Positions 4,301 through 31,699 are shown, counted from the whole stretch's first letter. The stretch: DNA of 47,689 nucleotides, filler included, from Jimgerdemannia flammicorona (GCA_003990765.1; 2 parts of 2 records of this genome joined end to end with filler, not necessarily neighbours in it), one strand, 5' to 3'. A program made the numbers and translations. Notes: generated by a model from the letters alone, not told the origin.

Positions 4301-4750
4301 TAATAATTCATTATATTACTATATTTATATTAAATATAAATAAATATTTAAAATAATAAATTATAATAATAAAAAGACTCAGTTGTAATTAAATAATAAT
4401 AATAGTAAATTATTATAAATAAATAAAATGAAATTATATATGATATATGAAGATTATTATATAAAATAATTAAATATATTAATTGAATTATTTAATATAT
4501 GTATTATATAGTCTATAATATATATATAGTTTAAGTTCTGAAAGATTTTCTTAAATGTTTATATAATAAAATATATTTATAGTTAAATGATTAATATAAT
4601 AATAATATATTATTATTTTATATTTTGGAAGCTGACAAAATTTTCAAAATAACTGATATTGATCTAAACTCTCAATTTAAAAATCTAATGCAGATTTGAT
4701 TCTGATTTATTTAACCTACTTGTAGATTTTGATTTGCATCAGATCTCTGA

Positions 4751-7700
4751 TTATAGGGAATTATGCTTATAGATTTTGATATGCTCCAGGTCGCTGATTT
4801 TAGCACACCATAAGCCACTATTGCATGGAATCAAAATGCAGGGCAATTTATCATGCAGAAAGCTCTCGCGGTGCGACCAGTCACCAATTTGCACACAGTT
4901 CTGGTAATCGTGACATTTCGGCAAATGCTTATGTATGTAATACCGCTGGTGTTCAGTATCGTTTAGTTCGCGACATCCATTGCCGAACCGGCATAGATGG
5001 GAATACACCTGCATTATTTGTATGGAATTTCATCAGTCAAAGTTCTGATACTAGATGTGTAACGGTAAATACTTGAAATAAATCATTACCTGGTTGTGTG
5101 GCGATTTGCCGAATTGGTGTTTGCAGATGGCTATGTTGCGACAGGGCGTCACAAATGGATGCGAAAATTTTCGACAATGACCTGCGTCGTTGTACTGGAA
5201 ACAAGACGTTTGAAGACTACAAACAACCCGATTTTCTGCTTCAAAGACCTTCAGTATCCCGTCGCGACGTATGGGGTCAGCATTAGTGGTCGCCGTCGCA
5301 TCCGGTGTTGTTGGGGCGTTCGTTGACGCCCATTGTGCAACAGCACGAGATATTGAAGCGTTGGGTGTCATTTGTGGTGTCCATTGAATAACATTCGTCT
5401 CCGGTAATGGCTTGCGATGCACCTCGATGGATTCGAATGACACCTAACGACGTGGATACATATCAATTTTTTTTTTTTTTTTTTTCTGGTTTCAGGTCCG
5501 CGCATGTGAAATCGTGAACACATATATACCTGATTCTTCCATACTCCGATTCCTAGCCATTGCACATCGAAGCTGAAATCTTCGCGAAGAGCGTTTTTAT
5601 TAAGAACCAGTGTTCGCCGATTGTAAATTTGTGAATGGCCCCAATGATCCACCTTGCAGATCTTTTGTCTAATGGTGTTGAATTCCGTTCTTAGTCGTTA
5701 TTAATTAAAGTGGTTGTCTACCCAAAAGCAGTAAGAAAGCTCCAAGTGACATACCTGCTGTTCATCTGAATGTGATAATTGACCCAGTCGCCCTCGGCAA
5801 AACCTTGGTCGAAGTTCGGGTCTTGTGCCACCCAATTCTTCTTGTCAACCGTTACCCTGTGCGCCGATGGTGGGCCTCTCGTGATGTAGAGGATGTGAGA
5901 TTTAGGACCTCCAAAATAGAAGGTAATACGCGCGCCATTGTTACTGCTTTCCTTGGTTTGCTTTTCGGTAAGCATAATGAAGAACTCGCTACCCTTGGCG
6001 CGGAAGTAAATATTTCCATCGCCTGCGATGCTAAAACGGAATGGCAGGGGGAGGATGGCACCTTTTCCGCGCTCCAGACTAACGCTCATGCCGAGTGGCC
6101 GGTGGACAGACCCGGTCATAATATTCGGCGATGAACAGTGTTCCATGGCGGTATTTATGAGTTTTCTCCGATCGTCGGTCAAATCGAGACGTCCGTCGAC
6201 ATCTCCTCCAACTGGATCACAGAATACTATGACATCGTTGTTCGGATTTGGAAACGCCAATCGAAACTGTTGCTTGTCGGCGACTGTCAACTTGCTATCC
6301 CAAATATTCTAGAGGAAATATTCAATTAATCAGTCGGGTTACTCTTCAAAAATATTTAAATATAATAATTCTTGAACATCTTACTTTTGGAATAATGATT
6401 TTTTCCACAAATGAAAGTGGAATGAGACTGGGCAAATGTGCCTCAAATACAAAATGGGACTCTCTTTTCAACCATTCGCTTTTCACATCATTCAAAGACA
6501 GGTGTGTTTTTCCCGTGGTCTCCATAATCTTTAGGGCAATAAATATGCAGTGTGAAATCTCTAAGCAATCTCCGCGTAAAGACTGAAATACTGTACTCAA
6601 TGTGACGAGGCCTGAAAAATATACCTGCGCGCAAATATCGGCGGCAGCAGCTTTTGCCCAATTTCTGCAGCTGGGATGCAGTTTTGAGTTATGAAACTTT
6701 TTCACAGCTTCTTCGGACTGAGCTTTGCATTTCGGCATGAATGGTCGATTGTTGGACTCTCTGCATGGCAAATTAGTAATCAGCGATTGCAACGTAGAAA
6801 ATCAATCGCTGAAAGGAACCAAAAGATTGACGGTGGGAAAGCCTCTAAAATTGCGTACCTTCCGGACCAAAACGATGTAGCTGCGTTTGGTGTAATGTTT
6901 GATTGAGGATGATTCATGATATCCTGTTTGAACAGTAATATAATGTCACCGTAATAGTAACCTATATAAAAATTTAATCAATTTATGTGATTATTACGAT
7001 TCCAATATTTATAGAAATAGTGGTCAATTACCCTTCAATTACCCTACTACTTACCAGTGTGAGGACCAAGGATGCCGAACACATGCTTGTTGGTTCCCAG
7101 TAACTTGTCAACATCATAATTAACCCCTACTGGATTGTTGGCAAGGTCTCTTGTTGCCTTGACAAGAAGATCTCCCAGATCGATTAAGAGTTTTATTTGC
7201 TCTCTGTAAATAAAAAGGTACATGAATCATTGAGAGTAACATACATGATGCCGAACTCGGAGAGGAAGCATTAAATAGATAATAACGAAAAGTAAGATGC
7301 AAACCTTGTCAAAAATTGACTGGATACGGCCTCAATTTTCAAATTAAGGTCTGTTTCCCAGGTTGGTAATTGCGGATCATTTGCCGCTTTACCGTAGGCA
7401 ACAAGAACCGCACACTTTACCAAATCCTGAAAACGTAATTGAGATCATGAATATAGCGCACAATTGTCACACAGAAACCCATAAATTGATAGGTACCTCC
7501 AAATCCATTCGTTCTCTATCTGACAATTTGTTCTTTTCACATATTTGCCTCACCAAAGGGTGATGCCGTGCTTCGTGTGATGCCCACATAGGATTTTTTA
7601 GTTTCCGAATGTGGTTCGCTGACATGACCTACACAATTACCCTGTGAGAATGCAGCGTTTTGTTGCAGATATGTACAAACAATGAACCAGGAATGCCCAC

Positions 7701-10700
7701 TCACATGATGGTGTGCCAATATACTTTTGAAAATCTTTGGCCTCACACGATGTGCTGGACGTAATCCCTTGACCCATTCAACAACTTCTTCTGGTACCTG
7801 AAAATTGTTCCCCTTTTTGGTGAAGTATACATCAGTCGCCTCGGTGATTTCCTGCGCATTGCCAGAGAAATCGACATCTTGACAAGCATCATCATAGCTT
7901 GAGATCGGTGGACCTTCGGATGTGTGCGCGTACTCCACTACGTGAAGTAATCGACTACGTTTGGTGCATACTAGGAGATGCGCCCATGACAGGTGAGAAT
8001 TTGCGGGGTGTGACAAAACGAACAACGGGAAAAATGCAGATGATAGTACCTTGCCCATATTTGCACGCTGATCGAATATCTGCGATCTCAAGGTGTGAAA
8101 ATAAATTCAAGTGCTTCTCGTTTAGGAGATGCATGCAGTTCGCGCCATGAGGACATTGTGTGCGGACTACATGAATCGTATTCTTCACATGATTGAGATC
8201 CAACAATTCCGGACATGCTGCACCATATTTACAAACGTGTGAAAACTTGGCGACGTGCTTGGCATCCATGTTTGTACACGCAAATGGGGTACCACGGCAG
8301 GGTGTGTTGAAAGGATGCACGCATTGTTCCATGTGAGGCACGACCATGTACTGGCCGCAGAAGCTACCATAAGGACATTGTGACTTAATATGTCGGAATT
8401 TCTCGGCGTGCTGCTTCACCTCTCTATTAGAACATGCAACGCCCTCAGCGCATACGGGAACATGAAGAAATTGTTGGAGATGCGCGTCCTCCATCGAAGT
8501 GCATCCACCGCCATTTTCGCAATGGGATGGATGAGAGAATAGCTCGGCGTGACCAGGGTCATCGTGTTCGATGCAAAGTCCCTTTCGCTTGCAGGGCTTA
8601 ATGTGGCGGAAGAGAAAGATGTGGTGGTCATCTGTTAATATGAAGCAAAGAAAATGTCAGTTCAGATATACGGGAGGAGTGATCAAGAACTTCAAAATTG
8701 AATACACATATGCAATACCGGTATTTTTGCAACCCTTGTCGAACGGACAGGACGGAGGGTGATAAAATTCTTTGGTATGTGTAGTGTCAAACTTATCGCA
8801 ACAGCCTCCAAAAGAGCACGTCGCCACCATTGGTACTGTAACCGGTAGTACTGTAACCGGTGGTAAGGTGGGTATACCAGGCCCAAGATTGGTGTGATCA
8901 AGATAAAGGGAGAAAATATCATAGTTGCCGGCCGGGTTGGTAGTGGTTATACTGTTGTGATCCTCAGTTATGGCGAATACAATTTTTCTGAACTTTCGCG
9001 AATACTGTTGTGCCACAGCTAGAAAAATAGCTGCAGGATTGCGGAAGGAAGAACGTTTACAACGCCATTCGGGAAAGAAGAAAATTAATTGCTTGATACT
9101 ATTGGTAGCGCTTACATGCAATCTGGTTCGGAGGGTTTTGGAAAGCCCCACATCCAAGCGCCGATAGCAGTAAACTGTCATGACCCTTATGAAGTGCAAT
9201 TGCAAAAATTGCTTCAATCTTCCTGCGCGTCTTGGCAACGTCTTGAAAGGAAAGGCAGTTATTTTGCAGCCATGGTTTTCTGCCGGTAGCATGACGAGGA
9301 TCGAAGTTAATATGCGCCAACGACATAACAGATTCAGCAACGTAATTCGGGTAACATACCGATAGGCGGCAACGGCTATAAAATCCATAGTGAAAGGTTC
9401 CTGACGGAAAGCGTATCCTGAATCTTCGGAATCACGAAATACCGTCACATCGGGTGTATAGATACCACCAAATTCAGCCATTGGATAGGTAGGGCAGCGC
9501 GGGTTTATGGGGTCGTCAAGGCTTAAAAAATAATTTGATCGGCGGAAAATATTCTCCTCCTGAGCGCCGTCTCCCTTCCGATATCCTCCACCGGGGCTCG
9601 TCGCCTATGTTTCAGATATAGCGCTATCAGTCAAGGTTTCTCCACTTTAGGCGCAAGCAGAACGATTAGATAAATGAGTTTGCCTTACGAACCGAAGCCA
9701 TGTTAAGGACCACTGGTCGGAGCCCCTTTTTCTTCATAGATAATGCCGCCAGGAGGCAATCTTCTTTAATGACCGAAACCGATGTGTGATTGTAGATATT
9801 GTTCGAGGCTGGGGGGAGGGCAGCGAAAGTGAATGATTCTGAAGATTGCCTTGGCGGATGGATTGTGATTCTTTCGGCCGGATTCGGTTCAGAGGCATAA
9901 TAGTACCCATTTCGAATAGCCGACAATGTAGCCAGCATTACGGTGACACGAATTCCATGAATTTGCTGGTTAACGCGGCTGATGGCCCTATCATCTTTCT
10001 GAAATCACATCATTTAAAAGAAAGTGAGCTTCCACGGAAAGAGACCATAACAGCTGTCCTTGAATCCACACTGACCGCTTTTGCGAGATCGCTGGCATAT
10101 TTCGATTTCCATTGCTTCCATATTTCGGGTTCCCAGTTTCGCAGAAACACTGGATCGTCGGCGGCATATTGATCTAATGAATGTGATTTTTCCGCATCAC
10201 GTTGTCGGAGAGCGGGAAATGAGTTTTCATCAGAATTCATGGCCAGGTGATCTTGCAGATATATTTGGCAATTCCTACCGATCGATCCGGGAACCTGAGC
10301 GCTTTGGTACCATTCATCGTCGAATTCCCAGATAGCCGGTCTTGCCCGAATGGCACTGATGAGAACTGGACGCCCTTTGAGAATCGGAGCCAATGACTGG
10401 CATAGACCCAAAACGCTAGAAGATGGTAATGAAATGCAATTATTTAATTAAGCGAGATTCGTATAAAATTTACTCTAATTTCAGGAACGGATTTACCTGC
10501 ATCGGGCTGTGGTGTCTTTCAGCCACACAATTGCCATCCTCTCCCTAATTCGCAAGTCGACTTTGGTGATCACTCCTTGAAAAATTTCCAAATCAAAGAT
10601 AGCTCCAGTCAATATGTCTCTGTGCTGTTGGAATAATTCGAGTGGTATGTCCTCTATGTAGACCTTTGGAACGGCTTCACTGAATAGCATTGCCTTTTTG

Positions 10701-13700
10701 TTATCAATCTAGTAGATAATATTGAAGTTTGAGGGTCCCGAATCCGGACATAGTAGAAATTGCTGTTTGAGAATGAGCTGAACACAACTTACTTGGATAT
10801 TCTTCAGCGCCAGCAACTGTTCTTTTGTAGCAGAATTAGGCAACAAAACAAGTGCAACCCCTTCGTCGCTACGTATGATCACGTTTATATTCCCAATTGT
10901 GGGGATCTGGGATCGAAAAACATTGGCGATTTTCTCGGACGTAGCACTCGGAGGTAGTTCTTCCAAATAAATCACACTGATGTAAAACGTGAGGATGTGT
11001 CGATTGTAGGAGATTCTATTATAAAAATGAAAGGAAAATGTTGGTAGTAAGTCGTGTTATTGATGGTGATGATAGACAAGCAGGATTCCCAACATAATTA
11101 TAATAAGTGCAGATAATATCAGGTTGTCATACCCCTCCAAGAGCAATGCCTTCTCCGCAGCTTCAAAATTACAATCAAACGCGAGAACATCCTGTATTTC
11201 ATTCTGAGTGTTATACTTCCAATGGCCCCTGAACACTTTAGACAAGTGATTTTGTATATCGGTCACTTGAAGGTTTCCGAGGTTACCTCCGATAAAGAGT
11301 GTTGCGGTTGCTCTAATTGGTATTCCGTAAAACATGAAGCAAAATAAAAAATCGGAGCTGCGGTGTCATTTTAACCCAAATCGCAAATTGAAAATTCAAA
11401 ACTGACTTCTTTTTGATCTTCACTCCGTACGGTGTTGCACCTTTATCTGACGGAAATAACATGCATTCTGCAGCCAAGGCTATTTCAGCATATTCGCGGT
11501 GGGCGAATTTCAGGGAACCGATTCGTGTCTGAGGGCCGATCTCACAACAAAGAACCTTTCCAAAGGCTATGGAGAACTGCGAATGTAGTTTTGCAGGAAA
11601 GGACGTTCGATGGAAAACAGATATTAGATTACGTCGATGACAATTGCAACGATTGTCACTTGTCGCATTTCCCGATGTGGCTTCAATCTGACACACCTTA
11701 TCAATAATGAAAGCATCGTTGACGTTCTGGGGTATCCCGACCAGATACACCGTTGAATTATTGTTGGATTTCCCGATAGTCGGCATTGCCCGTATTGCAC
11801 TGATGTGAACTGGACATCCTCGGATAACCGGAACAAATGACAGGGATTGTTTCAAAACTCTAGAAGATGGTACAATTATTTAAATGAGGTTCGCATGTAA
11901 ATTTACGCCAATTTCAGCTGGCTAAGAGAGCGAACTTACCTGCATCGGGCTTCGGTGTCTGTCAACCACACAATGGCCATCCTCTCCCTATTACGCAAGT
12001 CGACCTTGGTGATCACTCCTTGAAAGATTTTCAAACCAAAAATAGCCCCAATCAACTCGTCCCTAGGTTGTTGGAGTAATTCGTATGGTATTTCCTCTAT
12101 GCAGACCTTTGGAACGGCTTCCCCGAATATCATAGCCTTTTTGCTGTTGATCTAGTAGACAACATTGAAGTTCGATGGGCCCCGCATCCGAACATAATGG
12201 AAATCGCTGCTTGAGAATGAGCGGAATGCGACTTACTTGGATGCTATTCAAAGCCAGCAGCTGCTCTTTTGATGCAGAGTTGGGCAACAAAACAACTGCA
12301 ATACCTTCGCCACTACGTACGATCACCTTAATCTTCCTGATTGTGGGCAGCATTAATTGTAACACATTGGTGATCGTCTCGCATGTAGCAGTCGGAGGTA
12401 GTTCTTCCAAATAAATAACACTGGTGTAAACCGTGAGGAACTTTTGCTTGTAGATTATTCTATTAAATAATGGGAAAAATGTTGTCCATAGTAAGTCGTG
12501 TGATTAGCACAGATGATAGCCAATTAAAATCCCCAAAAATAAAGGCAAATGCAGATAATGTCGAGTGCCGTACCCCTGCGAAACCAAAGTTTTTTCCGCA
12601 GCTTGAAAATCACAATCAAAAGCGAGGACATCCTGTATTTCACTCTTGACATTACGCTTCCAATGACCTGTGAATACCTTAGACAGGTGATTTTGTATGT
12701 CGGTCACATAAAGGCTTTCGAGGTTCCCTTCGACAAAGAGTGTTGCGGTTGCTCTAATTCGTATTCCATAAAACGCCAAGCAAAATAAAAATCGAAGAAG
12801 CGATGCGATGTAATTTCAATGCAATTCTTAAATCGGGCATTCAATACTGACTTCTTCTTGATATTCATTTTGTACAGTGTTGCACCTTTATCTGACGAAA
12901 ATAACATGGACTCAGCAGCCAAGGCTTTCTTAGCATTTTCGTGGCTAGCGAATTTCAGAGAACCGATTCGCGTCTGACGGCCGATCTCGCAACAAAGAAC
13001 CTCTCCGAAGGCTGTGGAGAACTGCAGAGGTAGATTCGCAGGAAAGGGTGTTTGATGAAAAACAGTCATTAGGTTACGTCGATGATAATTGCAATAATGG
13101 AAGCTTGTCGTATTTCACAATCTGACATACCTTGTCAATAATGTATGCTTCGTTAATGCTCTGGGGAATCTCAACCAGATAAACCGTTGAATTCTCGTCA
13201 TCCCGTGGGCGCGAGGTAGTTCCTGTGACCTCCATCCTCACGACGCCATATTGGTGATGACCGTTTGGAGCGTCGTCAATCACGCTGTTTCCGTTCGTAA
13301 TTTCGCTTGTCTCGTGGTCGTGCCAATTCAACGCCGATGGCGAACTCGGAGCTATCCTGGCTGCGACGCAATTAACAAGGCACAAATCGATGTGGGAGTT
13401 GATGAAATACACGTTGTTGCCGAGGATCACGTGGCAGGCGGGGCATTTATTGTTAAAGACAGCTGCGGGTAAAATAGAAGAGGAAGTATGCGTGTACAAA
13501 TATTTATATTACTGCTATAGTTTTCGTCGCACACACCCTGCTTGCTTCTATCCTGTAACTCACCCTCGCCATAAGGAGGTCCCGTTTGTGTTGCAGATGA
13601 CGACTCACTACTGAATCTGCTGCTTCTTTCATATCTTCCATCTCCCTGGGTTGACCGCGAATATAGAGGATATTCCGGAACAGTGTGCGGGTCATCATTG

Positions 13701-13982
13701 CTATTCAGCCGACCTTGTCGACCAGTGGGGACGGTAGACTGATGAAAGCCGGACGAACCCGACGGAGTTGTTGAAACTATAAGCTGTAAAGGAACTGTTT
13801 TTAGACCACTATACAAACGGTTGAGTTTTAAAAAAATTTATTGCTGGCAAAATGGGCCTTATGATATGTTCTAATACGTAAGCTACCTTCAGAGCGCCAA
13901 GTGTCCTTGATAGAAAGCCTTGCGAAGTGCCGTTAGCATGATCTTGTGAGGAAGCTCGGATGGGGGGTTGTATGTCATCCAT
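4751..13982 (-). CDS. Large multi-exon ADP-ribosylation protein: UBZ - 8 RRM-like - bacterial-type PARG - 10 PBZ - putative ART - beta domain - 5 PBZ (about 2,200 aa, 29 exons)
   Basis: Manual splicing from ATG 13982 (MDDIQPP) to TAA 4751-4753 finds GT..AG introns with matching phases at every junction. It links track ORFs 13427, 13074, 12704, 12504, 12063, 11936, 11313, 11057, 10709, 10493, 10010, 9666, 8657, 9099, 7955, 7537, 6346, 5718, 5368, 5051 and 4751, with no in-frame stops in the model. The first two exons are the least certain. Confidence 0.85.
4760..5221 (-). repeat. C-terminal array of 5 PBZ-like fingers
   Basis: CSLQTSC..HCRKFSH, CRNIAIC..HNQ|VYSH, CRFGNGC..HQRYYIH, CHDYQNC..HRESFLH, CNSGLWC..HIKIYKH. 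Confidence 0.8.
7924..8818 (-). repeat. Array of 10 PBZ-like (C-x5/6-C-x6/7-H-x5-H) zinc fingers
   Basis: CSFGGCCDKFDTTHTKEFYH, CPFDKGCKNTDDHHIFSFRH, CKRKGLC..HAELFSH, CENGGGC..HLQQFLH, CAEGVAC..HAEKFRH, CPYGSFC..HMEQCVH, CRGTPFAC..HVAKFSH, CKYGAAC..HVKNTIH, CPHGANC..HLNLFSH, CKYGQVC..HVVEYAH. They resemble APLF/CHFR PBZ. Confidence 0.8.
8900..9998 (-). other. Microbial-type PARG macrodomain (TIGR02452/DUF2263) within the large gene
   Basis: Spliced: VIKEDCLLAA..PVVLNMAS|ATSPGGGYRKGDGAQEENIFRRS..GGIYTPDVTVFR..IAVAA..LLLSALGCGAFQNPP..FRKIVFAI. Catalytic GGG..QEE at 9554-9592. Confidence 0.93.
10335..13195 (-). repeat. Intragenic tandem duplication (about 1.44 kb unit, exons plus introns) encoding 4 RRM-like domains per unit
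   Basis: Unit A about 10335-11760, unit B about 11775-13195; e.g. NSTVYLVEIPQ/NSTVYLVGIPQ, CCEIGRQTRIGSLKF/CCEIGPQTRIGSLKF, IFQGVITKVDLR in both. Intron positions and phases are the same. Confidence 0.93.
13377..13445 (-). other. UBZ4/Rad18-type ubiquitin-binding zinc finger motif
   Basis: CPACHVILGNNVYFINSHIDLCL matches CPxC...INxHLDxCL. Confidence 0.75.
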
Positions 13983-20031: not shown

Positions 20032-21508
20032 ATGGCCGGGCAACCCCACAAAACTGGTCTTAGCCTCAAGGACGACATAGCCGAGATATGGACAAATGCA
20101 ACCTACCATGACGTAAACATCGTCTGCGCCGATGGCGTTGAGCTTGGCGCCTGTCGTGCTGTGTTGGCTGCAAGGTGTGTTGATCGCATTTAATGATTTT
20201 ATATATTCTTCTCTTATTAATTAATACCATACGGTCCCAAGGTGTCCAGTATTTAAGGCAATGCTGTACGGAAATATGCAAGAGAGCATCTCTCAGCGTG
20301 TCGTCCTCCACGACATCAACTCAGTAGTGCTGACTATCGTGCTCGGATTCATCCACACCGAAACAATCGACGATACCACCATCACCATCGCTGTGGACCT
20401 CTACCGTGCAGCGAGTTTCCTTCTCCTCCCAAAGCTCATGTCAATGGTTTTGGAGCGCGCCCAAGACATTTCCGACTTTGGCGTCTCCTCTACACTCCTC
20501 AACGAGGCCGCCGCTTCCATCCCATGGAGTGAAGCCAGCAAGGACCTCTACACCGTACTCCTCAAGCCCTTCTACTCTCGCAAGCTCAAAATAGGAGAGT
20601 TGACTGACCTCTCCGAGGAGGCCATCGAGCTTCTCTTCACTGCACCCTGCGCGACAACTCTCGTCACTTCCGAAAACGATCTGCTGCTGGGCATCGTCGA
20701 CTGGGTTTGGGCGCATGCCGAAGAGCCAGGGCTCGACGTTGCAGAACGTCATGCTATCTTGCGTGATATTGCCAGTATGGCTCCCGGCTGCAAGGGCAGA
20801 ATTCGGCTAGGAAATAACTCAGTGCTGTTGAACATGATGAGGCATGTAGACCTCACTCTCGTATGCCCGCATCACCTGAAGAACCTCACGGAAGCGGTCG
20901 ATGGGTTTGCAGAAACATCTCCGCACTACACGGCCTTTTGTTACCATGCATGCAAGAACACCATTTGTCCAACGGGGCACCCATCTGGGTATCGCCGAAG
21001 ACAAGATATCCGGTGGGATAGATCGAAGATTGGTTCAGGCGTTGTCATCTCAGACGACGGCAAGGTCGTAGAACTTTCCGTCGGGACATCGACAACCGAG
21101 ATGCAGACGGCGAGGATCTCCGTCCCAGGGACAATGACTCAGGCGGAGTTGTGTGAATGGGACATTGTCGTTGAATCCGTTGGATTGTATGGCGGATCCC
21201 GGCCCTTTTGCGAAATCGGGTTGGTGAAGGAAGAGTTCACTGGTTTCGATCTCCGAATGGAGGGGTGGTTATTCAAGTCTTGGGATAATTACCGGGTGAT
21301 AACCGGACCGGGAGAAGTCCGTGACCATGATGTCACTCTTCGGGTTGGTGATGTGGTGACTTTGCATCTGGATAAAGGCAAACGTACTTGCTCTCTTTCC
21401 ATCAATGGAATTAATCACGGGATTGCATGGACTGACCTTCCGGAGACAGTGTACCCTGCAGTGACTGTAGGTGTTCAATCCAAGTATCGGATAAAGGATG
21501 ATCTTTAA
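20032..21508 (+). CDS. BTB/POZ - BACK-like - SPRY/B30.2 protein (2 exons: 20032-20174, 20242-21508; 469 aa)
   Basis: Exon 1 YHDVNIVCADGVELGACRAVLAAR joins in phase to CPVFKAMLYGNMQES (BTB). C-terminal EWDIVV..EIGLV..GDVVTLHLDKGKRTCSLSING..LPETVYPAVT is SPRY-like. Confidence 0.9.
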
Positions 21509-24649: not shown

Positions 24650-25161
24650 TCGGATTGGAGTTTCTTCTCAGGGTAGCAAAACGACACTACAGACGATTTT
24701 AAATGACCGACATGCCCGTGTAATGCTCGCGTTTGAAGCAAGTGCTTACCGTGATTGTTGCTGATAGAATTTCGAACCCAATTTGTAACACTAAGTAAAG
24801 GCACTGACATTGTGAATGACGATGGAGTTACTATTAGGTTTACGAGGTGAGCCAAGCCAATTAACCAAACCATAGAAGCCGCCCCATGGCCACCATCACC
24901 AAGCTGTCGAAACGGCTCGAAGTTTCGCATTTACTCTTCCACGAGTCTCTGAAACACCTGATGGGGATGGACGAGTGGAGCAAATGCAGGAGCGAGTGAG
25001 TGGAACGGAAGGGGATTTGGTTTGGTGAGGGCAATTGCCTTTTGTCTGTGTCAGTTACCCGCAAAGCCACTGCATGAAGTACAGTCCAATCACATGACGG
25101 TGGCCGAGTTCAAAAGCCCCCCGACCGTCACGCGCTGTAAAAGCATTCCTTTCACTGCTCC

Positions 25162-28100
25162 ATGGCCTCCAAACCGCCCACATTCTTCGCGAAACAGCAA
25201 GCAACCCTAAACAGCCATAATTGGGACTGGGTGGGCACTGCCGTTACCAACTCCCAAGACATTTCCACACTAAACGCCCGCCAGGTTTACGGCCTCACAC
25301 CAACCACTAGCAAACCTTATTGTGCCAACAAGTATGAGGTATCTGGTCACCACAGTTGTGACGAAGGTTCCCAGGTGTCTAATCCTGATGCCATTATTCC
25401 CGATAACGTCTCAATTGACGGCAGCGATGTTACGCATACCAATACCAACCTTGTTGAGAACAAGCTAGTTTCCGGACCAAAAATAATGAAAACAGCTCCG
25501 TCTACCCTGACGAAATGCAACACTAAATGTCGCGATAACCCAAACTGCTTGAGCAACCTGGGTCAAGAACTTTGGGAGGCGGAAGGTAAACAACACTCTC
25601 GTATGGCGCAATTCGCTCGAAGTAAACGTTTTCGCCTCAGCATTATCGCGTAAGCAACATCTACACGGTATACTACGTGTATACGGTCAATCCACAACCA
25701 AGCACTCACATATTTCCACTGTAAATTTGGAAAATATGACAGATGCCTTCAAGAGCTACTGCAAAGCTCAAAAGTTACTCGGCTATGATCCTTCGGAAGA
25801 ACGAAGAGACCCGGATTTACCGGTTGGTCTGCGGGTAAGCCTTGTTGCTCATTGTTATATCGTTACTTGTACCATTTCCGAATCTTTCTGCATGGGCAGT
25901 GAAACTCATTTTATACCACCATTGCTAGAACCTTGGGGCAACTTGTTATGTGAACAGCCTTCTGCAAGTATGGTTCCACGATCAAGCACTCCGGCGTGGA
26001 GTGTTCGCGTGCGAAAGTAAAGCACACGGGGTTGATAAAGTACGTATAGAGCATTGCACTCCTTACTAATAATCTTCAATATCATCGTTGGTAAACTCTC
26101 AGACCATCTCTCTCCAGAAATCGCCCATACACCATCTTCAGCATGTCTTTGCATACCTCCATCAAGGGAACCGGAACGTATATAACCCTGGCCACTTTGT
26201 CGAGAGCCTACAGTTGAGCACCTGTGAACAGCAAGACGCTCAGGAGTACGTCGTGGATTCCCAAATACTGTTTTCGATTTTGTTGACTAAAACAGAGCGT
26301 ATCACTGCCACAATGTCATTCCAAAATCCTCTAGGACTAACTAGCCGGACATTGCGTCGATGTGTTTGCTTTCGAAAAATTATCTGCAGGTTTTGCAAGC
26401 TTCTCATGTCTCTCCTCGAGATGGAATTTGCTGCACAACCACATGCTCATGTTAGATCTTTGATCAAGGACCAGTTTGAAGGTGCCTACGCGTATGGCAC
26501 CCGGTGCAAGCGATGCAATAACATATCGCTAAGGGACTGCTCGTTTTACGAACTCGAGTTGCAGATCAAGGTAAGGTGAGAGGGAACAAAACAATGTTAT
26601 CACTGAGGTGTATATTTTGGCTAGGAGGATTCAAAAAGGTTCCTAAATTGTAGGTGTTGAATAGTATAATATGATATATGGCGCCATTACTACATTTCAT
26701 TGAACCTTCGCATTAAGGACAATTCAACTCTGCAAGAGTGCATTCAAGAGTATTTGAAGCCGGAAATGCTAGAAGGTGCCAATCAGTACGTGATCAATTT
26801 TTCGCCTTTTATTGGGGGGGGGAGGGAGGCAGGGGGGGAGGGAGGGAGGGAGCATATCAGCTCGAAGAAAACGATATATTTACTTATCGTAACCTCTGAA
26901 ATCGTGTTGTCGTCCAATAATTTGGTCCTTTTCACAGATATCTGTGCCCCACTTGTCGGTCTATGCAGGATGCCGAGAGGTCAATACATTTGAAGTCTCT
27001 CCCACCGGTAAGCTTTTTACGCATCTACTAGCAACTGCCAAGTGAAATATAATGAGGGTATGGGTTCCTGCAAACATTTGTTATGTATTCAAACTCCGCA
27101 CTCGTTTTGCTCGCATCTGCTCACAATAAAATATCTAGGTTTTGAATATCCAGTTGTTACGTTTCATTTATGACACGACATCACTGACGAAGAAGAAAAT
27201 CAAGCGCACTGTCCGTTTTCCCAAAACAGTTGATATGCGCGAGTTCATTGATATTGATCACTGCGGGGATGCGGCCGGGAAACGAAAACGACCTAGGACG
27301 GACGATGGATATGGAGATAATAGTAGGGTGGAGGATAATGAGACCAAAGATACCAGCGATGACGAGTTCATCTACGATTTGACGGCTGTCCTGATCCATA
27401 ATGGGCCGAGCGCATACTCCGGGCACTTCATTGCTCATGTGTTCGATGAAAGGTATGCCACTACTCCATTGATCATCGCAACGTTTTATTATTACGACAA
27501 ACAGCGACTCGTCGTCAAAAAAAAAATCGCCTAATTATATACCTTGCCCGACCTCTTTTCCTTGTATGCAGTAGAAAGACTTGGTTCAAGCTGGACGACG
27601 AGACAGTTACGCGACTGGAGCCAAACGAAGAGTTTGATCCTGACAAGGAAAAAGAAGTGCCTGTAGATAAGAAACAGCCTGCTACTGCCGGACAGGTGAA
27701 GAAACCCAGGGGAAAAGGAAAAGGGAAACTGGCCGACGATCAAAGCCAAAGCGAAAAGAGCAACCAACAAGATCAGGGAACGCAGGCAAAAGAAACGGTG
27801 ATGTAAGTATCAACTCTCATTTACGATTTTTTTTTTTTTTTCCAAAAAAACCATCTACTATCTTGCCTGCTTATGCTATCTCGTACAAATGAATACTCGC
27901 TCCAGCATGCATTCGTCTCGAAACGCCTACATGCTTGCATACACCCGTCGCAGTCACCGCAGAAACCTAACTCTAGACGCTTGCCCTCCGCCATGGGCTG
28001 GAAAAGCAGTGGAAGCCGCGAATCTCGGATTTGAACAGGACGTAGAAGAGTACAAACAAAAGTCAGTTGGAAAATTATGATTGCGTTTACCTTAAATGAA

Positions 28101-31100
28101 TTATCATTGACTGCTTTTAAATCACTGTAGAATGGAATCGCTCAGAGACGATTTTGAGCGTAAACGAATGGAGCGTCGTAGCTTTTACACTATGTGGAAC
28201 GTGAAGAGCAATGAAGTATGTAAAAAGCTAAGTCTGCAAGGGTTTTATTGGTTTCGCGACAATGCATTTTCAATTATCTTCTAACCCTTTGATCCCATAA
28301 TGTAAACTTTGATTTCAACCACAACTACATTCCGGCAGGATGCTTCATATTATGTGGCAGCTGACGCATTGAGGACATGGTTGCATGACGATTTCGGGGT
28401 TTCACCTGACGTAATGCAAAATACCAAGGCCAGAAAACCCGAAGATAACGATATGAAAGTTATGACTGACGAAAAGCGTTGTGAAGAAGGGATGGTTGCA
28501 GTAGCATCTGATAATGACATTCCAATGACAGATTTGCATCCTGCTCTAGCGAATGATAGAATTTCTGTCGATGGAGACGTTGAAAACGGAAGAGCGATAT
28601 TAATGGAAATTGATACGGAAAATGAGATAGGATACGTTTCCAAAGGCGATTGTATTTCCGATGAAACCGATCCGAAGGATAACAAAACATTTGACAATGC
28701 AACCATCACTTGTGAACATGGTAATTTGGACCCTCTAGCTTTGGGAAAGGCCAAGAGGATCCGCGAGGTAAGTAATTCGGGTCCGCGAGCCGTTCTACGA
28801 TCTACTTGCAAACATATTGCTGCAATTCTTTCCCTCTTCTTTCTTTTGAGCGGCACGGATCAGGGCTAGTATAAGAGTTGTTACTATCTCCGAAGCATAC
28901 TCACCCAAATAGGACGCGTAATTTGTTTAGGAGGCTGGGGAAAGGCTTTTTACGGAATATGGATACGTGTTCCAGCCATTGCTAACTTCTCAGCATCTGT
29001 GTCGGGAATGCGTAAAGGAACTATTTGAAGGTATGCATAATAGGCGTTATTTCCTTGAGTGCGGGAGAAATTTGAGAGTGAAAGAGCTTGGCAGTTGGCA
29101 CTCGTACAATGACGGCATGGGTCTTTTATCGGAACAGACAAACTTTATTCCATCAAGCATCCTAAGGACGTCGACTTATTTCTAAAAAGAGAGCGCGAAA
29201 AAACAAAGCTACCCAAACAATACTTTTGGATATCAAAGGAATGGCTGAGAGGTGAGGTGCGAACTGCAAGTCCCAATTGTCAAGCATGTCCGTTTTTTTT
29301 TTTTTTGCAAGGACGCTTGTTCACTATTAAATATGGGCTTCCATGATTCCATGAACGAAGAATGGAAGAAAAAAACTCCCCGGTTCCACATCGCGCATTC
29401 TTCGGTAGATCCTCGACCAGACGCCGATCCTTGGATATCTCACGTGAAGTGCAAACATGGCGCGCTGACGTTGAACGATAGAAACAGGGAAAATATACCG
29501 AAATCTGTAAGAAATTTTCTCTGGCTCTGCTGTTTCATAGCATCGGCAATCTATGGGACTTATTGTAACTCACTTACGGTCAACGTGTTCCTCATTCAGG
29601 CCTATGAGTTCCTTCAACAGCTTTTTCCTGGACTAGAATGCTTCACTAATGCTACAGATGTCTGCGAAGCTTGCCAGAGTTTGGAAGAGATGAAGCTTGA
29701 GGACACCAAGGAATATCGCGAACAAGCCGAGATCGAGCGGAATGAGCTGAAGTCCCTGCTAAACTCAAATAAGAATACTAGGATTCATGGTGGAACCTCG
29801 TACCGGTTGATTGAAAAAGGTAGGTTGATTGAGAGAACTTCCTTTTTTGCCCATCATTCTCTTTTCATCGTTCAAAAACTACTTGTGTTTCATACAGATT
29901 TCTTGGATGCCTGGCGACGGTTTATTCGAAACCCAAACAACAGCCAGCGACCCGGCATGATCGATAATAGCCAATTTCTCTGCGCGGATCACAACAAACT
30001 GGTTTATGACTTGAATATAGCGGAAGATGCCACTTGTGGCGAGTTTGAAATCATACAGCAGGACGAGTGGGATTACGTGATCGCCTTATACAAGGGAGGA
30101 CCCGATATTACCTTGATGCAAATGGACAAAGTGAATGTGGAGGGACAAGAGGAAACGAAATCCGACTCCAGAATTATAACCGTACCTGAGTTGTGTGAGG
30201 GTTGCAGAATGAAACGGTGAGTTAGTGTGTCATCGTCTTAGCTAATGGTTTAGGAGTTCCGACCCTATATCGATTGACTCAAATCCTTCATGAGCAGCAA
30301 ACTCGATTACGAGGAGGGGACGATTTTTATACGCAAAACTGATATTACAACAGTCCATGGACACCAAGTAGACCGTAAGGTGTGCGCAGGGTCTACATCA
30401 TCGTCGGAAGAGCTTGCCAACTCATATGATCATGAACACCATTCTTTTCGGAACAACGTTTGTTCTGATGTCATAATCCCCAATAACAACGGCAACCAGC
30501 CGTCGCATATCCTTGGCGTTGAACAAGGTGGAGGTGAAGATGACGACGACGATGCTGCAGATGCAACTTATAGAGTCTCATCAACAACATCACGCGCAAC
30601 GAGAAGTGGGCGGGGTCCTCAAGCACACAAGGGTGGCCGTGGAAGGATAAAAAAGACCGTAACCAGAAAACAGCGAGTGACAGTGTTGGGTCCAACTAGA
30701 CGATCCAAAAGGTTGAAGCGGAATACAGGGGACGGGACGGGGAAGGCAGATGGACAGATGGTCAAGGTGACCATGAACAAGGATGATACGGTGAAAGCAT
30801 TGAAAGTCAAGGTGGGTGTGATATGTGTCTCTTGTCTTCCAAATATGATTGCAACATTAAAACTAGTAATTGATATATGACTCACGTATCGTATTTTGGA
30901 ACGTAGATCATGGACCAACTCAAGATTGTCCCAATTTACCAGCGGCTATTTCTCGAAAAACGCGAGCTCGAGGACAACGATGTTACTATGGGTCAATTGG
31001 GCGTTGTTCCGGGGACAACGATCGACTTGGTTGAATTTGAAGAAGGGGAGGACGAAGGTGATGTGGTCGCAGCAGATGGTGGGTCTTTCTTCTGTATCGC

Positions 31101-31356
31101 CTCTCTGTTAATGAAGGAGGCCCTCACTGATGGTCCATATCTATATTTATCATGTTTCTTAGATTGGAGTCAGGTCCACAAGGTGGAAGGTGGGTTTAAA
31201 GGCACGGGGCTGGTGGGTCTTTTATTCAATAACGGTGGAGAAGGAGGTCCAGTGGCGAGCGGAACGAGTGGATCCATAGGGTGGAGTTGCAGTGTGTGCA
31301 CGTTTGTCAACTATAGTGAGCAATCGGTGTGCCAGATTTGTGACAGCCCGAAATAG
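25162..31356 (+). CDS. USP48: Ubiquitin carboxyl-terminal hydrolase, USP48-like (multi-exon), with DUSP-like domains, C-terminal UBL and RanBP2/NZF finger
   Basis: CRDNPNCL N-terminal motif; Cys box VGLR|NLGATCYVNSLLQVWF; QQDAQE; FYELELQI; His box YDLTAVLIHNGPSAYSGHFIAH..WFKLDD; SSRNAYMLAY; CEHG and CKHG DUSP zinc motifs; UBL TVKALKVK|IMDQLKIVPIYQRL; EGGFKGTGL; WSCSVCTFVN..CQICDSPK. Confidence 0.92.
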
Positions 31357-31699
31357 AATCACAATGTCATCATGGCAACTTGAGTGTGACGTGAAGGTTC
31401 TTCGGTCGGTGATCGACACATAATAAAATGTTCATAGTGTGCTAGTGTTTCAATAAGACGAGCACGGCATTTATATTTTTATAGATAGAAGTGATCCTAT
31501 ACATCGGTGTGTCGAAAGATATGATATTCTTGCATACAACTCAACGAAATACTTGTGCCTTTATTCTACCTTTTGAGGTCTGCTGTCCAGACCTTGCAAA
31601 GAAAAGATATTATTCAGCATTGTATTTACAAATTTACATATATATTTATGTTGCCTCTGTTTTATATGAAGTTGTTCATAATGATAAGCCATAATTTGT

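Follow-up and report, generated by a model that had tools for sequence, protein, structure and literature searches.

Gene structure and splicing of the minus-strand locus

The window, by which we mean the whole stretch of 47,689 nucleotides (filler included) analysed here from two records of the Jimgerdemannia flammicorona genome (GCA_003990765.1), is eukaryotic DNA in which genes of 42–47% guanine plus cytosine (G+C) lie within blocks of 18–28% G+C and short introns are frequent. Its minus strand carries a long gene, spanning ~13,840 to its stop codon (4751–4753), that encodes, in this order, RRM-like modules, a microbial-type PARG, ten PBZ-type zinc fingers, a domain resembling ADP-ribosyltransferases (ARTs) and, after a beta domain, another five fingers. 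The subject of this report is the ART-like domain. The original prediction, made by eye from the sequence, had placed a DarT-like ART fold fused to its own potential eraser at 6385–7790, and this segment comprises seven exons of the one long gene.

Splicing was evaluated over positions 4700–10100 with contigs of two public sequencing runs from two studies (X1 and X2), both of which carry the label "RNA?" as a guess only. We read both as RNA-derived because their contigs skip 15 introns, each 70–101 bases long and bounded by GT..AG on the minus strand; 14 of the 15 are skipped in both runs and one in X1 only. The contig-supported introns in or beside the segment are 6309–6384, 6761–6858, 6962–7054, 7204–7304, 7427–7496 and 7629–7704. 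Two splices had been guessed in advance, one joining AHHH to VMS and one joining GPHTG to YYYGD. Both guesses are right, since they correspond to introns 7629–7704 and 6962–7054, respectively, each with GT..AG ends and present in contigs of both runs. The proposed start at 6385 is likewise an exact exon end, adjoining intron 6309–6384, and the three peptide stretches originally quoted all occur in the minus-strand translation where they had been located. A further intron, 6529–6624 (96 nt, in frame, without stop codons, GT..AG), was deduced from alignments to homologues, in which the stretch is absent; its joint is not seen in the contigs of either run, which in both cases end near 6633, and the stretch may be retained in some transcripts. 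Removal of the 15 contig-supported introns and of 6529–6624 leaves one continuous open frame of at least 1396 amino acids (aa). Across 5273–8987, X1 contigs show 7 single-base differences from the window and X2 contigs none, which looks like two strains or alleles.

A profile hidden Markov model (HMM) of the family described below, combined with a codon map, places the ART-like domain from ~7842 to ~6276, beyond the limits first proposed. Because the HMM match extends to ~6276, the domain continues into exon 5755–6308. The exons concerned, in order of transcription, are:

7705–7970, minus strand: exon with contig-supported joints; from ~7842 it holds the start of the ART-like domain, with the N-terminal helix, strand 1 and helix 1 (IFKSIL)
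7750–7752, minus strand: codon of His685 in the conserved strand 1 motif Pro-x-His-Arg, within exon 7705–7970
7497–7628, minus strand: exon with strand 2, which ends in Ser (VMS, codon 7620–7622), and the start of a helical insert
7305–7426, minus strand: exon with contig-supported joints; middle of the helical insert
7055–7203, minus strand: exon with the end of the helical insert and a conserved D-x4-T-x4-F-x3-G-P block (strand 3)
6859–6961, minus strand: exon with the YYYGD strand (triad Tyr838, codon 6951–6953) and a His-Pro motif; joined by contigs on both sides in both runs
6625–6760, minus strand: exon with a helical part and the conserved Lys of SKLH (codon 6682–6684); upper end from contigs, lower end from homology
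6385–6528, minus strand: exon with the strand DSH-FVF-E-A-H-L-P (Glu943, codon 6442–6444; His, codon 6436–6438), then IPLSFVEKIIIP
5755–6308, minus strand: exon in which the ART-like domain ends, at ~6276, with its final helices and strand; a beta-rich domain follows

Exon 6859–6961, with its YYYGD strand, is missing from all seven deposited Jimgerdemannia protein models (P0001–P0007), among which P0001 is a partial model of the window gene itself and additionally lacks exon 7497–7628. Contigs of both runs contain both exons, and the YYYGD region is contiguous in P0008 and other non-fungal homologues. Gene models can in this way hide a domain, as the loss of the triad-Tyr exon from every deposited Jimgerdemannia model illustrates.

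An unannotated eukaryotic family with a predicted ART fold

With the largest exon frame as query, 8 proteins among 299 candidates matched at E ≤ 1e-3. Seven are from Jimgerdemannia flammicorona (Endogonales), and the eighth, P0008 (1861 aa), holds the entire segment uninterrupted. When the P0008 stretch was searched with HMMER against 1.84 billion representative sequences, 344 matched at E ≤ 1e-3, of which 249 also passed 1e-10 and 80 passed 1e-30. The family HMM aligns to residues 655–973 of the spliced window protein over profile positions 11–328 (E 2e-107), with no large gaps, an agreement beyond what chance would give. The members looked up belong to rotifers (Rotaria, Adineta, Didymodactylos), to protists (Naegleria fowleri, Pharyngomonas kirbyi, Copromyxa protea, Diphylleia rotans, the dinoflagellate Polykrikos and a marine protist transcriptome) and, among fungi, to Jimgerdemannia (Endogonales); in none of them does the ART-like region have a name. 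Among 5.8 billion proteins, a search with the profile recovered 78 matches, all close eukaryote-type relatives and none carrying an ART Pfam family, and Pfam searches with single window exon frames returned nothing for the domain. As judged from these homology searches, the segment belongs to a conserved, unannotated family found only in eukaryotes.

Residue conservation was counted over 201 domain matches in 155 proteins, in the numbering of the homologue P0013. The starting His-Arg pair is conserved among homologues (His44, 93/99; Arg45, 86/99), as is Ser62 (99/108). The D-x4-T-x4-F-x3-G-P block is kept at Asp173 (130/134) and at its Thr (129/138), Phe (127/137) and Gly (133/138) positions. 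Further along the domain lie Tyr194 (115/129), Gly195 (125/129), His208 (128/133), Asp210 of an H-P-D motif (118/133), Lys251 (120/136), His295 (113/123), His301 (116/125) and Pro303 (124/125). The Glu of FEAH, proposed in advance as catalytic, is the near-invariant Glu of the family (Glu299, 118/124, the remainder being His in 3, Gln in 2 and one other). The window retains every one of these residues except Asp210 of H-P-D, where it has Gln; its triad consists of His685, Tyr838 and Glu943.

The fold was predicted with AlphaFold2 for P0013 (366 aa) from an alignment of 36 sequences, with a predicted local distance difference test score (pLDDT) of 94 and a predicted template modelling score (pTM) of 0.90; P0013 and the window domain share 37% identity over 303 aa (E 2e-66). 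In a Foldseek search of the PDB, the sole match of the model at E ≤ 1e-3 was SopF with bound nicotinamide adenine dinucleotide (NAD; E 5.7e-4, probability 1.00), and the next were DarT, OspC3/CopC and CteC (E 0.2–2.5). By fold, SopF, Tpt1 and CopC/OspC3 match as well as DarT does. The structural DarT alignments extend to model residues 359–366, and the Tpt1 match covers the NAD lobe only, with nothing like the Tpt1 RNA lobe seen. PARP chains are absent among the 50 matches listed in each of two structural searches, a result still compatible with a distant relationship. A search of viral folds in BFVD gave 0 matches at E ≤ 1e-3, with a DUF3626 phage protein at E 0.026, and the ESM Atlas provided leads only, namely one cluster with PF06128 in 33% of its members (score 0.92) and another with DUF3626 in 39%.

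At the level of the fold, the model contains the split beta-sheet, NAD+-binding core of the ART superfamily, with a helical insert of ~115 residues between strands 2 and 3 in a domain of ~330 residues overall. In agreement with the ART fold first proposed, the model matches solved ARTs in the structural searches, and on this basis the segment is predicted to encode an ART-superfamily domain. His44 lies in the first core strand, Tyr194 just before strand 197–201 and Glu299 in strand 298–302. Because this strand order matches that of the H-Y-E class, the three residues are probably equivalent to the canonical H-Y-E positions, an equivalence of strand order rather than of residue-level superposition. 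A regulatory role for the helical insert is a reasonable guess because SopF and CopC also bear extra helices around the core; SopF is activated by ARF, and CopC is bound by calmodulin via N-terminal helices (for CopC, PMC9239266).

Domain company and a proposed role in ADP-ribose signalling

The remainder of the gene surrounds the ART-like domain with the following parts:

10076–13840, minus strand: N-terminal part with a tandemly duplicated RRM-like block, from tblastn of the paralogue P0004 and reading frames
8719–9998, minus strand: microbial-type PARG macrodomain, in exons 9693–9998, 9360–9604, 9116–9279 and 8719–9030
7924–8818, minus strand: ten PBZ-type fingers of the pattern C-x5/6-C-x7/8-H-x5-H, by pattern count, between PARG and the ART-like domain
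within exon 5755–6308, minus strand: beta-rich domain that follows the ART-like domain immediately and is conserved family-wide (124 matches among the collected proteins)
4763–5221, minus strand: five more PBZ-type fingers of the same pattern, C-terminal, by pattern count

The potential eraser that had been placed in the same protein is indeed there. PF10021 matches two window exon frames (E 1.1e-11 and 3.3e-5; 45.8 and 24.7 bits against a cut-off of 23.5), and the PARG signature, of which we take the consensus to be GGG-X6-8-QEE, is intact as GGG-X7-QEE at 9554–9592. Assignment of the fingers is by pattern, with profile scores below cut-off: PF10283 (zf-CCHH) reaches 13.5 bits (E 0.072) against a cut-off of 22.7 on a window exon frame and 18.5 bits in the paralogue P0007. 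The paralogue P0005 has a precomputed PF10283 match, and the family profile matches the tandem PBZ of APLF in the PDB (E 0.0058). For the RRM-like modules, 2 of 12 N-terminal frames matched RRM_1 (PF00076), both below its cut-off of 20.7 bits (E 0.021 at 15.1 bits and E 0.16 at 12.3 bits).

Pfam scans of 28 long family members show that this company is widely kept. PARG (PF10021) stands N-terminal to the domain in 24 of the 28, PBZ occurs in 11, WWE in one (P0080, with two WWE stretches) and LRR-Roc-COR in one (P0064); two contain no Pfam-recognised domain, and in one, P0017 of Rotaria, an R-S-E ART (PF01129) takes the place of PARG. Pfam found no ankyrin domain in the family proteins scanned.

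In the N-terminal coding part, a tandem duplication of ~1.4 kb lies at ~10,400–13,120 on the minus strand, with RRM-like modules in each copy; the near-copy frames at 10493–10708 and 11936–12151 are both 75.6%, and partly less, to the paralogue P0004. Neighbouring genes on the plus strand encode a BTB plus SPRY protein (20225–21508) and a USP-type deubiquitinase with DUSP and a RanBP-type zinc finger (~25,100–31,400).

The explanation we favour, with a probability of roughly 0.6, is that the segment is an NAD+-using H-Y-E ART domain embedded in a reader–writer–eraser protein of ADP-ribose signalling. NAD+ would be bound in a cleft formed by His685 of strand 1, Tyr838 of YYYGD and Glu943 of FEAH, and the ART-like domain would transfer ADP-ribose from it to a target. 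The zinc fingers would bring the protein to poly(ADP-ribose), and the PARG domain would trim or reverse ADP-ribose chains. A single polypeptide would in this manner unite reader, writer and eraser, and its role would probably lie in the response to stress or DNA damage. Transcription with splicing, conservation of the family, its fold, its conserved residues and its domain company are demonstrated here; use of NAD+, catalysis, the target and the interplay with PARG are inferred.

A number of observations weigh against this explanation. No model in Pfam (0 of 36 members at E ≤ 10), PADLOC (0 of 15) or NCBIfam (0 of 15) matches the ART-like domain, and sequence searches of the PDB, by single sequence or by family profile, found no ART chain. 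Profile–profile comparison with hhalign gave a probability of 0.15% (P 0.39) against 121 DarT sequences, with P 0.17 and 0.32 for the N- and C-terminal parts, and of 1.6% (P 0.031) against four OspC paralogues, with 2.5% (P 0.018) for the C-terminal part. The fold was modelled on P0013, a homologue of the window's own spliced protein, and the sharing of one cleft by His, Tyr and Glu is suggested by strand positions rather than by measured distances. In CopC the triad His and Phe are reported as dispensable (PMC9239266). No assay of any family member was found in the literature searched. Lastly, a shared fold alone does not show activity, and the pairing with an R-S-E ART in a rotifer member fits a role downstream of ADP-ribosylation equally well as a role as writer.

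These last two points also favour a pseudo-enzyme or reader, whose ART fold would only bind NAD+, ADP-ribose or poly(ADP-ribose), as in inactive PARP-like domains, and the richness of the protein in reader-type modules points the same way. Inactive ART-like domains usually lose the Glu, whereas here the full His-Tyr-Glu set, above all the Glu, is kept across distant eukaryotic groups; we regard a binder of this kind as quite improbable.

Within the explanation of an active ART domain, a broader proposal can be advanced tentatively, and we give it less than even odds: the family would be a third, hitherto unrecognised group of eukaryotic ADP-ribose writers beside PARPs and R-S-E ecto-ARTs, structurally nearest to bacterial DarT, SopF and OspC, distributed over at least five supergroups and nearly always accompanied by PARG and PBZ, and might deposit a mark outside the PARP repertoire. 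Such a mark may lie, for example, on nucleic acid or be a non-canonical arginine adduct, and may serve the stress or DNA-damage responses of bdelloid rotifers and Endogonales. If the domain is active, it represents a eukaryotic ADP-ribosyltransferase family absent from current catalogues. The gene itself offers a single polypeptide on which a combination of reader, writer and eraser can be put to the test.

In the literature searched, no description of an ART-like domain in PARG-PBZ proteins was found; the 2015 review of ART families by Aravind and colleagues lay outside that scope and may hold a prior mention. A 2014 survey (PMC4245714) notes an Adineta PARG with PBZ repeats without an ART domain and reports that a search for PBZ in fungi failed to find any. 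A 2026 review likewise reports no fungal PBZ and counts four fungal writers as described. Against these two papers stands the present fungal protein with fifteen PBZ-type fingers, although their Pfam scores fall under cut-off.

Comparison with known ART systems

Comparison with known families was used to place the domain and to weigh the remaining explanations. Because the profile comparisons with those families are negative, we file it as its own family of H-Y-E type in the ART superfamily, separate from DarT, OspC, Tpt1 and PARP, and the gene ties the fold group of bacterial DarT toxins and SopF/OspC effectors to ADP-ribose signalling in eukaryotes. The closest structure, SopF (PDB 7dn8, 7dn9), is an injected bacterial effector that is activated by ARF GTPases and modifies a glutamine of the V-ATPase. 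It has 12–13% identity to the family and carries Ile where the family has His, whereas the family is eukaryotic and fused to PARG and zinc fingers.

For DarT, the original prediction holds in part: the ART fold stands, and membership of the DarT family does not. No member is matched by PF14487 (0 of 36) or by the models of PADLOC and NCBIfam (0 of 15 each), and with the hhalign result (P 0.39) all of these profile tests fail, so DarT membership was rejected. By eye, DarT of E. coli E2348/69 and the family have in common the strand 1 His-Arg and a Glu strand with a P-I/L-rich strand (P-I-S-L-L-D-G-I-I) after it, a register that hhalign did not pick. This likeness would suit a nucleic-acid ART that is toxic when free and fused to a macrodomain antidote, with RNA or single-stranded DNA as its target, and so would the existence of a fused DarT-DarG in the PDB (7omu), the presence of PARG, itself a macrodomain, in most long members and the weak RRM signal. 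The DarT profiles do not match, the RRM scores lie under cut-off, and the fifteen PBZ-type fingers, together with the WWE of one relative, are signs of poly(ADP-ribose) signalling directed at proteins, not of a toxin module. To our knowledge, PARG-type enzymes are known for cleaving ribose–ribose bonds and not base–ADP-ribose bonds, which also speaks against this version. On balance a DarT-like module is an unlikely explanation, and the toxin–antitoxin picture would be an analogy that the fold permits and that no result here requires. Relative to DarT (DarT1/DarT2, DarTG), the family is ~120 residues longer through its helical insert, is eukaryotic and belongs to a multidomain protein exceeding 1300 aa.

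The only local sequence motif in common with any of these systems, E-x-H-[LI]-P, is shared with OspC and not with DarT. In every hhalign run, F-E-x-H-L-P of the family (FEgHLP) aligns with L-E-Y-H-I-P of a 484-aa OspC paralogue (E326, H328), and both of these residues are reported as essential in OspC3 (PMC9239266). OspC3 and CopC further require two Asp residues (PMC9239266, PMC11598138), and Asp173 and Asp210 of the family are conserved; the ESM Atlas cluster with PF06128 adds to this likeness. An OspC/CopC-like domain would use NAD+ for arginine ADP-riboxanation or other non-canonical protein chemistry instead of plain ADP-ribosylation. Against it, the hhalign comparisons are not significant (probability 1.6–2.5%, P 0.018–0.031), the sole OspC alignment that covers OspC3 D231 puts this residue on A-x-T of the family and not on an Asp, and Pfam sees no ankyrin domain. 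We consider such chemistry doubtful, and membership of the OspC family itself was rejected on PF06128 (0 of 36) and the lack of hhalign significance. OspC3 and CopC are bacterial calmodulin-dependent effectors with an H-F-E triad and C-terminal ankyrin repeats (PMC9239266), whereas the family has Tyr for Phe, and a beta domain and zinc fingers in place of the repeats.

An RNA 2'-phosphotransferase of the Tpt1/KptA type would remove 2'-phosphates in an NAD+-dependent reaction, with the macrodomain processing the ADP-ribose phosphate product. A macrodomain does act downstream of Tpt1 in yeast, and the RRM-like modules, though sub-threshold, would suit an RNA substrate. Since PF01885 matches 0 of 36 members and the fold match is confined to the NAD lobe, membership was rejected. 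The clade scheme of PMC12522546 places Tpt1, with its separate RNA lobe, in an H-H-h clade that lacks the catalytic Glu conserved in the family, and we hold a Tpt1-like activity to be very improbable.

At the level of the sequence profile, PARP membership was rejected as well, with PF00644 (PARP catalytic) matching 0 of 36 members at E ≤ 10. In architecture, the protein that we favour as a reader, writer and eraser of ADP-ribose nevertheless resembles the macro-PARPs and PBZ-PARPs, in which an H-Y-E ART is joined to modules that bind or remove ADP-ribose; the combination of PBZ with a PARP catalytic domain is reported from several eukaryotes (PMC4245714).

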